Positions 27,037 to 28,968 of a stretch of 32,000 bases of DNA are shown one piece after another. The position numbers were made by a program, and so were the translations under genes. The stretch's first letter is position 1. The number at the start of each line of letters is the position of its first letter. The stretch is from Halomicronema hongdechloris C2206. Lineage in GTDB: Bacteria > Cyanobacteriota > Cyanobacteriia > Phormidesmidales > Phormidesmidaceae. The stretch spans positions 3,750,001-3,782,000 of the forward strand of contig NZ_CP021983.2 in the NCBI RefSeq assembly GCF_002075285.3. Reading direction: 5' to 3'. The notes beneath the pieces are model-generated. The model was not told the DNA's origin and did no database searches. It worked only from the letters and a program-made list of their open reading frames with translations.

Positions 27037-28968
27037 TTAACAAAATTCCCTAGCAGCGACCAGTTCCACCGGCACTGGTCGAGAAGTTCGGTCTTGTACA
27101 AACTGTTGACGCGGAAGTAAGTGGGATGCCCCGCCGATCGAAATTCGGTTCTCGCCAAGTGTCTCCCTGATGAGACGCTGCACGGACGTATCGAAATTCT
27201 GGGTATTGACGCGTTGTTCGATGGGCGGCAATGGTAAATTGGCTGGTCTGCAACGGCCGAAGACAGCTTCGAGCTCCTCCAGAACATTGAATCTGTCGCG
27301 CTGATTGGAGAGTGCCGCTTGCTCGCCAAAATGTGCACCTTCCCAATTAGAGCGCAGGTCTTCCAGAGTAAACGCGCTCTGTGCGGTTCCAATCTGTCCA
27401 GGGTCTAGCTCCTCTCCTGCCTCTAATCTTTCACGATAGCGCTGTTGCCCTTCTTCCGCCTCCAGACTGGTTTCATACGCCCGTAAACCACCGCCAGAAT
27501 AGACACTTGGGAAATGCAATTGCCAAATAAGGTTCAACAAAGTTGACAGATTTATATTTGACTGCGTTGCATGAATACCCAGCGACTCAAGATAGCCAGC
27601 AAGTGATGTAAAGAAGAAGTGTCCCATGTCGAGCCACCCGCAGTTGCAGGTGTAGACGAAATTGTTCGAAGGCAAATCTACACCTTCTCCTGGATTAAAT
27701 GCTTCACCGAGGCTCCAAAGCTGAACGAGTGTTCTGGTATGGGGACCCGCCGGGAATAGAAACCTCCATGCGATGTTGGGTCTGCCACTCAGGCGGCCGC
27801 CAGTTACATTTATGCCAGCAGGAGGGCCTGTCCGTAACGCTTCGTAAAAGCTATTTGCCTCCTCAAGGGTTTGCCGCACTTTATCGACAACTTCATCACG
27901 GTATCGGATTCCGCCTGACTGAATTGAACGATGGATTACCATTCGTTCTGTACAGGATGAATTTCCGGAGACTTCAGCATTAACAGCATGGGCAAGTTCG
28001 TGAGCCAAGAGCCTCTGTCCGCCTTCGGTTCCTGGTTGGTACTTCCCTCTTCCAAATACGATGCGATTGCCCACTGTGTAGGCTTCAGCGCCAATGGCAA
28101 CAGCAGATCGGGCAGCCGTCTCCCCTGTATGAATACGAATGTTAGCAAGATTAGCACCGATGCGTGTCTCGAAAAACCGGCGATTCGCCATATCCATGGG
28201 TTGTCCAGATGTGGACAGCGCCCGCCTGACTATAGCAGGGACTGCGCTTTGACTCGCAGCCGTTGGGGTTTTTCGGTGCACAGAATTGTCGCTTGAGAAT
28301 AAGCTGAACGGCGGTCGTAATAACGAGCTTACCGTAGGGACAGGGTCTAGGATCTGCGCTGCGAATACGTCCGCTGCGTGCTCTTCGGGCGCGTCGACAC
28401 TACCGAGGCGAAGACTGGTTGGCACTGGATAGTTCCTTAAAACCAACGGAGATCGTATTTTTACCGAAGGCTCCATGGACTGTACTGACTCAGTGGCTGC
28501 TGTCCCCGGCAGCTCGCTGACCGGTCGTACGGTTCGTTGCCCATACTTGTGGTCTGGTTTCTTTGCCTGACAGTTTGGGCATGTGCCACCGCAAGCGCAA
28601 GCAGACTGTAGATGTAGTTTGGGCATGCGCATCATTCGGTTGGTGATACAGCCTGCCCACTGCTCGTAGTCCTCTCTAGGAAAACTAATCATCAGTTTGG
28701 GCTGAATTCTTTCCGATGTCATTACGTGTACTGGTATTCGGCTGAAGTCATGAGCGAAGCGAGTTGCAGCAGTGATGCTGGGCTCAACTTCAAGACCTAC
28801 AGAGTCAGTCCGCCGCAACCTCTGCACAGCTTGGTTTCCAATCGTGCGCTGTAGTTGAGGGATGGAGTGCATGTCACGGCGCTGCCTAGAAAGCGTCGGG
28901 CCGCACTTCACTAATTTTGCAGAATGAGATTGCTGAGTTGCCTTTGGCTTCTGTGCGAATGTGTGCAT
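27037..28968 (-). CDS. DUF4157-domain (HExxH metallopeptidase-like) protein with an unrecognised roughly 300-aa C-terminal domain, built like a polymorphic toxin
   Basis: The N-terminal leader is canonical for DUF4157 proteins (MHTFAQKPKATQQ...LQRTIGNQAVQRL...FAHDFSRIPVH). The core is RRFFETRIGANLANIRIHTGETAARSAVAIGAEAYTVGNRIVFG....P....G..LLAHELAHAV. I prefer the ATG at 28968, with GGAG 8 nt upstream, over the ORF-track start at 28989. Confidence 0.85.
   Translation of the reverse strand: MHTFAQKPKATQQSHSAKLVKCGPTLSRQRRDMHSIPQLQRTIGNQAVQRLRRTDSVGLEVEPSITAATRFAHDFSRIPVHVMTSERIQPKLMISFPREDYEQWAGCITNRMMRMPKLHLQSACACGGTCPNCQAKKPDHKYGQRTVRPVSELPGTAATESVQSMEPSVKIRSPLVLRNYPVPTSLRLGSVDAPEEHAADVFAAQILDPVPTVSSLLRPPFSLFSSDNSVHRKTPTAASQSAVPAIVRRALSTSGQPMDMANRRFFETRIGANLANIRIHTGETAARSAVAIGAEAYTVGNRIVFGRGKYQPGTEGGQRLLAHELAHAVNAEVSGNSSCTERMVIHRSIQSGGIRYRDEVVDKVRQTLEEANSFYEALRTGPPAGINVTGGRLSGRPNIAWRFLFPAGPHTRTLVQLWSLGEAFNPGEGVDLPSNNFVYTCNCGWLDMGHFFFTSLAGYLESLGIHATQSNINLSTLLNLIWQLHFPSVYSGGGLRAYETSLEAEEGQQRYRERLEAGEELDPGQIGTAQSAFTLEDLRSNWEGAHFGEQAALSNQRDRFNVLEELEAVFGRCRPANLPLPPIEQRVNTQNFDTSVQRLIRETLGENRISIGGASHLLPRQQFVQDRTSRPVPVELVAAREFC

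Follow-up and report, generated by a model that had tools for sequence, protein, structure and literature searches.

In this study, we examined a protein-coding gene of the cyanobacterium Halomicronema hongdechloris C2206, located in a window of 32,000 nucleotides (the whole stretch of DNA that was analysed, positions 3,750,001 to 3,782,000 of contig NZ_CP021983.2). The gene (27037..28968 in window coordinates, on the minus strand like all of its features given below) encodes a protein of 643 amino acids (aa) with a three-part architecture: an N-terminal leader, a DUF4157/eCIS_core zincin-like domain and a folded C-terminal domain. An earlier note on this DNA had left the C-terminal domain unrecognised. 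Profile evidence assigns it to CapCone-1, a family of the Lipocone superfamily that was described in 2025 within the ClaspCone-CapCone-TelC clade, and its fusion to DUF4157 is tabulated in the same work (Burroughs, Nicastro & Aravind, bioRxiv 2025; eLife 2025;14:RP108061; PMC12419801). The gene is a new, somewhat divergent CapCone-1 member, in a fusion that is itself already known. Taken as a whole, the protein is probably a modular toxin-type effector, in which a leader of the kind found on cargo of extracellular contractile injection systems (eCIS) and a DUF4157 domain would carry a CapCone-1 tip predicted to cleave or exchange phosphate-linked lipid head groups.

The source data of the Lipocone work give core sequences for each of three CapCone families, one of which is DUF4056 (eLife 2025;14:RP108061). 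A hidden Markov model (HMM) built from 27 published CapCone-1 sequences scored 50.3 bits on the window protein (aa 434-549, E 2.8e-15), matched 1 of the 218 stop-to-stop open reading frames (ORFs) of the window, namely 27037..28968, and matched all 75 proteins of the family described below, none of which was matched by a model from 13 CapCone-2 sequences. With hhalign, the family alignment matched CapCone-1 at 99.6% probability (E 8.3e-24, 96 columns), against 3.4% for CapCone-2. We place the domain at approximately aa 400-590 (27199..27771), around the published-profile match, and find the residues expected under the rules for the clade in three short motifs. Motif 1 (aa 435-453, NNFVYTCNCGWLDMGHFFF; 27610..27666) would form the beta-hairpin "clasp" leading into helix H2, and holds the predicted active-site histidine H450 with a glycine six residues earlier (G444) and, four residues before it, the xD pair (L446-D447), for which the clade rule also allows DK. 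Motif 2 (aa 498-509, YETSLEAEEGQQ; 27442..27477) lies on helix H3, with E505 as the predicted active-site glutamate, accompanied by Q508. Motif 3 (aa 531-548, SAFTLEDLRSNWEGAHFG; 27325..27378) opens helix H4, where the S/GxxSxxD rule reads S531-A-F533-T534-L-E-D537; F533 is the aromatic residue before the Ser position, D537 the predicted active-site aspartate, and the small residue with Asn at +4 (S540-N541) and a helix-capping glycine (G544 or G548) follow.

Two neighbouring assignments were considered and rejected. CapCone-2 was raised by relatives from Bdellovibrionota that bear signal peptides; that family carries a DKxGH motif (eLife 2025;14:RP108061), the window protein reads LDMGH, and the profile scores speak against it. 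Pfam DUF4056 (PF13265) does not match the window protein even at E<=10. The likeness to it is at family level, the family consensus scoring just over the Pfam cut-off (24.7 bits against 23.6) across both motif regions, with 13 of the 75 members matching weakly; DUF4056 proteins differ, however, in associating with genes for outer-membrane-protein beta-barrels and not with toxin scaffolds (eLife 2025;14:RP108061).

The family itself emerged only with a full HMMER scan of our sequence library, as word-indexed searches with the C-terminal domain had returned 1 true relative for the single sequence and 10 for a profile. With aa 339-643 as query, the scan recovered 74 cluster representatives at E<=1e-3, of which 16 also reached E<=1e-10; the matches centre on the three motifs. 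The earlier note had picked out the same motifs as conserved-looking, and all three prove to be the most conserved columns of the 75-protein family. Invariant or at least 90% conserved are N435, C441, G444, W445, D447, G449 and H450 in the first region, E505 and Q508 in the second, and S531, T534, E536, D537, S540, G544 and G548 in the third; in a 30-sequence alignment H450, E505 and D537 are invariant, and Q508 is kept in at least 90% of sequences. A Pfam scan of the 75 members found eCIS_core in 30 and RHS repeats in 7, in addition to the weak DUF4056 matches. Three architectures recur, in which the domain follows DUF4157, follows DUF4157 and is itself followed by an extension of 200-460 aa without Pfam annotation, or follows RHS repeats with a DPxGL core end. 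Since the domain stands behind RHS cores as well as behind DUF4157, the family bears the signature of a polymorphic-toxin tip, and the description of the C-terminal domain as effector-like is borne out. The published tables list the same N-terminal partners for CapCone-1, RHS at 94 loci and DUF4157 at 21 (eLife 2025;14:RP108061). The window protein resembles described CapCone-1 proteins in its profile match, its H2-His/H3-Glu/H4-Asp set, the beta-hairpin clasp predicted before H2 and its partner domains, but differs in having Thr at D-3, in a TCxCGW...GHFF signature that is invariant in its subgroup and in the absence of an adjacent Imm-BamE or PsbP/Mog1 gene. In its full form, TCxCGW[IL]D.GHFF, this subgroup signature is absent from the published CapCone-1 sequence tables. 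As a separate observation, some relatives, namely P0011, P0015, P0017, P0023, P0025, P0033, P0037, P0052 and P0005, run on for 200-460 aa without Pfam annotation beyond the CapCone-1 domain, which in P0005 is followed by a second DUF4157 domain.

The only close homologue of the window protein, P0002 (75-79% identity), is encoded on a 4.4-kb contig, L001, where the ORF is conserved in frame over its full length save for 73 aa deleted from the leader. Between the two genes, the ratio of nonsynonymous to synonymous substitution rates (dN/dS) is 0.51 in the leader, 0.17 in DUF4157, 0.20 in the C-terminal domain and 0.12 in the last 53 residues, and purifying selection acts on both domains. The strongly constrained tail (aa 591-643; 27040..27198) is fully alignable with the L001 homologue only, and a weak ET...LPRQ(H/Q) motif within it is common to some relatives.

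An AlphaFold2 (AF2) model of the C-terminal domain, computed from the 30-sequence alignment, reached a mean predicted local distance difference test score (pLDDT) of 80.9 and a predicted template modelling score of 0.82. It places strands at aa 437-440 and 444-447 and helices at 448-462, 493-516 (with E505) and 535-557 (with D537). At the level of secondary structure, this predicted hairpin running into H2, together with the long helices, fits the clasp and helical core described for the family. AlphaFold on the full protein from a single sequence was uninformative (pLDDT 34).

The reading frame is an uninterrupted minus-strand ORF of 643 aa counted from an ATG, or 650 aa if read from an upstream TTG at 28989, with its stop codon at 27037-27039. 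NCBI annotation of the contig disagrees on the start, with one call of 643 aa and one of 386 aa; the latter begins at Met258 and lacks the entire leader. The ATG is the real start of a 643-aa protein, because the first 13 residues, MHTFAQKPKATQQ, are identical in P0079, an Ntox34 toxin whose leader is 64% identical to that of the window protein over aa 1-133, and because a GGAG stands approximately 9 nt 5' of the ATG. NCBIfam and PADLOC returned no match for the 643-aa protein, and a promoter and terminator scan around the gene found fewer sites than expected from shuffled sequence.

The earlier note had treated the N-terminal 340 aa as one DUF4157 module. The leader motifs and the HExxH that it quoted are all present, but the region resolves into a leader of 256 aa and a Pfam domain of 74 aa. 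The match to PF13699 (eCIS_core, formerly DUF4157) is strong (93.6 bits against a cut-off of 22, E 8.7e-27) and restricted to aa 257-330 (27979..28200), which leaves the first 256 aa (28201..28968) as a leader outside the Pfam domain. A putative zinc-binding motif, H323-E-L-A-H327 (27988..28002), was located by pattern search on the translation and checked against the DNA. Within the leader lie GNQA at 44, DFSRIPVH at 74, an EQEAD-like motif at 101 and CxCGG at 124, and the first, third and fourth of these recur in the leaders of other DUF4157 proteins with the same C-terminal domain. The resemblance of DFSRIPVH to the start of DUF4157 raised the idea of a broken first copy of that domain; we rejected it because DFSRIPVH also lies within the intact leader of P0079. 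In the L001 homologue, the clean in-frame 73-aa deletion (L001 2197-3930 against window 28624-28842) removes GNQA, DFSRIPVH and the EQEAD-like motif while the rest of the protein is kept, which points to a leader that is in part dispensable or modular. Searches with aa 1-335 found 2315 homologues at E<=1e-5, and sampled relatives join the same leader and DUF4157 to Ntox34, Ntox16, Aspzincin_M35, DUF6973, DUF7689, DUF6782 or ivWA domains, in agreement with the earlier statement that the module recurs before variable toxin domains. Leader and DUF4157 together are a widely reused module, a constant head with a variable tip as in polymorphic effectors.

To relate this architecture to function, the closest parallel is the AlgoCIS system of Algoriphagus machipongonensis, in which Cgo1 and Cgo2, proteins composed of an N-terminal domain, DUF4157 and a C-terminal domain, fill the tube lumen (Xu et al., Nat Microbiol 2022; PROCIS preprint 2026). 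The disordered N-terminal domain is needed for loading there and DUF4157 is dispensable; the killing of E. coli by Cgo1 does not depend on the HExxH motifs of that protein. The window protein has the same succession of leader, DUF4157 and variable C-terminal domain, and its relatives likewise occur inside eCIS operons; it differs in that its gene adjoins no eCIS gene, and in that loading was demonstrated for Cgo1 and Cgo2 and is only predicted here. A motif-based genome scan returned no Algoriphagus locus. By analogy with Cgo1 and Cgo2, the poorly constrained leader would be a cargo-loading or trafficking region, and would direct the protein into the tube of an eCIS that we infer to be encoded elsewhere in the genome; DUF4157, with its intact HExxH, may be an accessory or processing module, and the soluble CapCone-1 domain would be the toxic tip. 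For the chemistry of that tip, the parallel is TelC (prok-TelC), a type VII secretion system lipid II phosphatase toxin of Streptococcus intermedius that is accompanied by the immunity protein TipC, cleaves lipid II and is inactive in the cytoplasm of its producer. TelC falls in the same Lipocone clade according to the literature and is a soluble toxin domain whose target, as predicted for the window domain, is a phosphate-linked head group of a lipid; unlike the window domain, it has cap inserts of its own and an extra Asp-Arg pair, and the two share no sequence or Foldseek match. By analogy with TelC, which acts on lipid II, and with PTDSS1/2, which act on phospholipid head groups, H450 (helix 2), E505 (helix 3) and D537 (helix 4) would catalyse the hydrolysis or exchange of a phosphate-linked head group on a lipid of the target envelope. 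The candidate substrates are a phospholipid or precursors linked to undecaprenyl diphosphate, such as lipid II.

Several points weigh against this account of an injected, lipid-active toxin. Although the AF2 model of the domain is confident, Foldseek against PDB and BFVD gave no solved or viral structure at E<=1e-3, and TelC was not recovered by fold; a PDB profile search with the family came back empty, and a PDB sequence search returned nothing relevant. At D-3 the protein has Thr (T534) and not the Ser of the clade rule, and C441, invariant in the subgroup only, is not accounted for. TelC and PTDSS1/2 are the only assayed Lipocone enzymes, the CapCone families resting on computation (eLife 2025;14:RP108061), so that the substrate is an extrapolation. 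As DUF4157 is dispensable for AlgoCIS loading and Cgo1 with mutated HExxH motifs stays toxic, the role proposed for the middle domain is tentative. The genomic surroundings add two further points. In Pfam scans of the larger ORFs, genes for sheath, tube, baseplate, spike and AAA ATPase were all absent from the window, and tblastn with 18 proteins taken from an actual eCIS operon matched only the DUF4157 protein itself, so the absence of injection-system genes that the earlier note reported holds. Nor is there an adjacent immunity gene, again as noted earlier: the 667-bp downstream spacer (26370-27036) contains no ORF of at least 60 aa (the longest being 58 aa on the plus strand, overlapping the 3' end of the gene, and 43 aa on the minus strand), a check of its short ORFs yielded no plausible immunity candidate and none that is lipobox-like, and the downstream DNA is not conserved with L001. 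In published CapCone-1 loci the downstream genes include PsbP/Mog1 (89) and Imm-BamE (23) (eLife 2025;14:RP108061), and no Imm-BamE lipoprotein or PsbP/Mog1 gene adjoins the window gene.

These surroundings can be set beside what is known of eCIS-associated toxins, many of which have no immunity gene and 88% of which are encoded no more than ten genes away from an eCIS operon (Geller et al. 2021, Danov et al. 2024). In one survey, 983 of 1130 predicted injection-system toxins bearing DUF4157 had no annotated effector domain. The window protein resembles eCIS-associated toxins in its N-terminal DUF4157, its C-terminal toxin domain and the immunity gene that in them is often absent, but differs in having no eCIS operon inside the window. 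By analogy, the absence of an immunity gene would agree with immunity-less eCIS toxins and would fit the inactivity of TelC in the cytoplasm.

Relatives of the window protein do occur at injection-system loci. The gene for P0076, a relative of 487 aa, lies inside an eCIS operon, downstream of the sheath, tube and Pvc16 genes, with the AAA ATPase gene on one side and those for spike, PAAR and gp25 on the other. Genes combining DUF4157 and CapCone-1 stand between AAA ATPase and spike genes at L002 (10001-11464), L004 (8723-10693) and L006 (9242-10714), the latter two recognised by tblastn with the proteins of the P0076 operon, and directly after an AAA ATPase gene at L007 (9137-11752, Rubrivivax), where the same search found only the AAA ATPase just upstream and one conserved gene just downstream. 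These four relatives, from four different assemblies, lie within eCIS operons; L004 is a Bacteroidales and L006 a proteobacterial metagenome-assembled genome, both with further DUF4157 genes alongside. At further family loci, L003 being an example, and at L044 and L045, which share the leader type, there was no eCIS gene within 10 kb. L044 and L045 are surrounded by IS110 transposases, reverse transcriptases and a TIR gene, and they indicate that orphan copies in mobile islands are not unusual.

The operon position at L002, L004 and L006, between AAA ATPase and spike genes, and at L007, after the AAA ATPase gene, leads to a further reading, which we hold to be unlikely: the subgroup with the TCxCGW...GHFF signature would be a distinct lipid-active enzyme serving as fixed internal cargo of one eCIS lineage, and orphans like the window copy, which lie in transposon-rich islands and lack immunity genes, would be exchangeable cassettes, possibly using a route other than eCIS. 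The same positions, in an internal operon slot at L002, L004 and L006 and not at the variable 3' end, and directly after the AAA ATPase at L007, could also be read as those of a fixed accessory of the injection machinery and not of a target-directed toxin. Such an accessory might be a lipid-active enzyme aiding particle release or envelope penetration, and the window copy would be a stray duplicate of it. We find this distinctly unlikely, as the same domain tips RHS proteins, which are a toxin-delivery scaffold, the internally encoded DUF4157 proteins of AlgoCIS are lumenal cargo, of which Cgo1 is lethal to E. coli, and the leader is common to proteins with the bona fide toxin domains Ntox34 and Ntox16.

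It is quite improbable that the gene is a decaying or non-functional remnant, an orphan cassette uncoupled from its delivery system in an island rich in mobile elements. Its setting lends itself to that interpretation, given a flanking DUF6399 transposase-like gene, nearby toxin-antitoxin-like modules and gene fragments, and two other proteins with the same leader type in IS110-rich regions without eCIS genes; so do the fast evolution of the leader, its deletion in the sole close homologue and the shorter of the two public annotations. Yet the frame of 643 codons is unbroken, none of the active-site or HExxH residues is missing, the start-codon context is in place, and dN/dS stays at 0.12-0.20 in DUF4157, in CapCone-1 and in the tail. 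Highly improbable, finally, is the Cys/His/acid catalytic set of the earlier note, that is, a papain- or NlpC-like peptidase or amidase with C441 or C443 as nucleophile and H450 as base, for although C441, D447 and H450 vary little or not at all across the 75-protein subgroup, and the AF2 model puts Cys and His into one structured hairpin-helix element at a spacing of 9 residues, the domain is a profile-level CapCone-1 member with H450, E505 and D537 matching the Lipocone triad, published CapCone-1 sequences mostly have K, E or T where C441 stands (Cys in approximately 7 of the 27 sequences used), which argues against a family-wide catalytic Cys, and usually have G where C443 stands, neither Pfam nor NCBIfam shows a peptidase family, and the fold searches gave no papain-like match.

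Around the gene, the window contains further elements that we record in their own right. In the downstream spacer, two short hairpin-forming elements (GCCCACC...AATTGGTGGGC-like) lie at 26670-26699 and 26787-26819, approximately 118 bp apart; the element has no Rfam match, and searching the window with one pattern, which missed the second copy through an indel, gave no additional copy. Beyond the spacer, 667 bp downstream and on the same strand, 24996-26369 encodes a TIR_2 protein with two predicted membrane segments and an intervening domain, whose PADLOC matches are limited to the TIR part of defence proteins (SAVED_TIR, ThsB-like); another orphan DUF4157 gene, L044 7121-9055, also neighbours a TIR gene. 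Upstream, at a distance of 205 bp and on the same strand, an ORF of 206 aa (29174-29794) has no match in Pfam, NCBIfam, PADLOC or PDB sequences and is not kept beside the L001 homologue, where the upstream gene encodes a Polyketide_cyc2/AHSA1 protein. Next to it, on the plus strand, 30131-31711 encodes a DUF6399 protein of mobile-element type with an N-terminal helix-turn-helix (HTH).

Farther away, small toxin-antitoxin-like genes at 20809-23646 include a PIN toxin with an 88-aa partner and also an overlapping gene pair at 22500-23091; within the same region, which has a low guanine-plus-cytosine (GC) content and strong GC skew, 23203-23646 resembles an ABC ATPase fragment with an LSGGQ motif. 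A split HTH and DDE_3 transposase (1738-2855, minus strand) lies in a patch of 36-38% GC near the start of the window, and adjoining genes for an animal-type haem peroxidase, a cytochrome P450 and a SnoaL-like protein (14227-18305, minus strand) may form a small cluster for oxidative tailoring. Across the 32-kb window, neither the Rfam scan nor the tRNA scan gave a match.

Nothing that we observed contradicts current models. The placement in CapCone-1 gives a DUF4157 protein a testable predicted activity, together with named residues on which it would depend (H450, E505 and D537) and the subgroup-specific C441. As a compact, soluble and confidently modelled CapCone with one close homologue, the domain would lend itself reasonably well to testing the hypothesis of Lipocone toxins, and the protein would bear on why many such toxins need no immunity gene.

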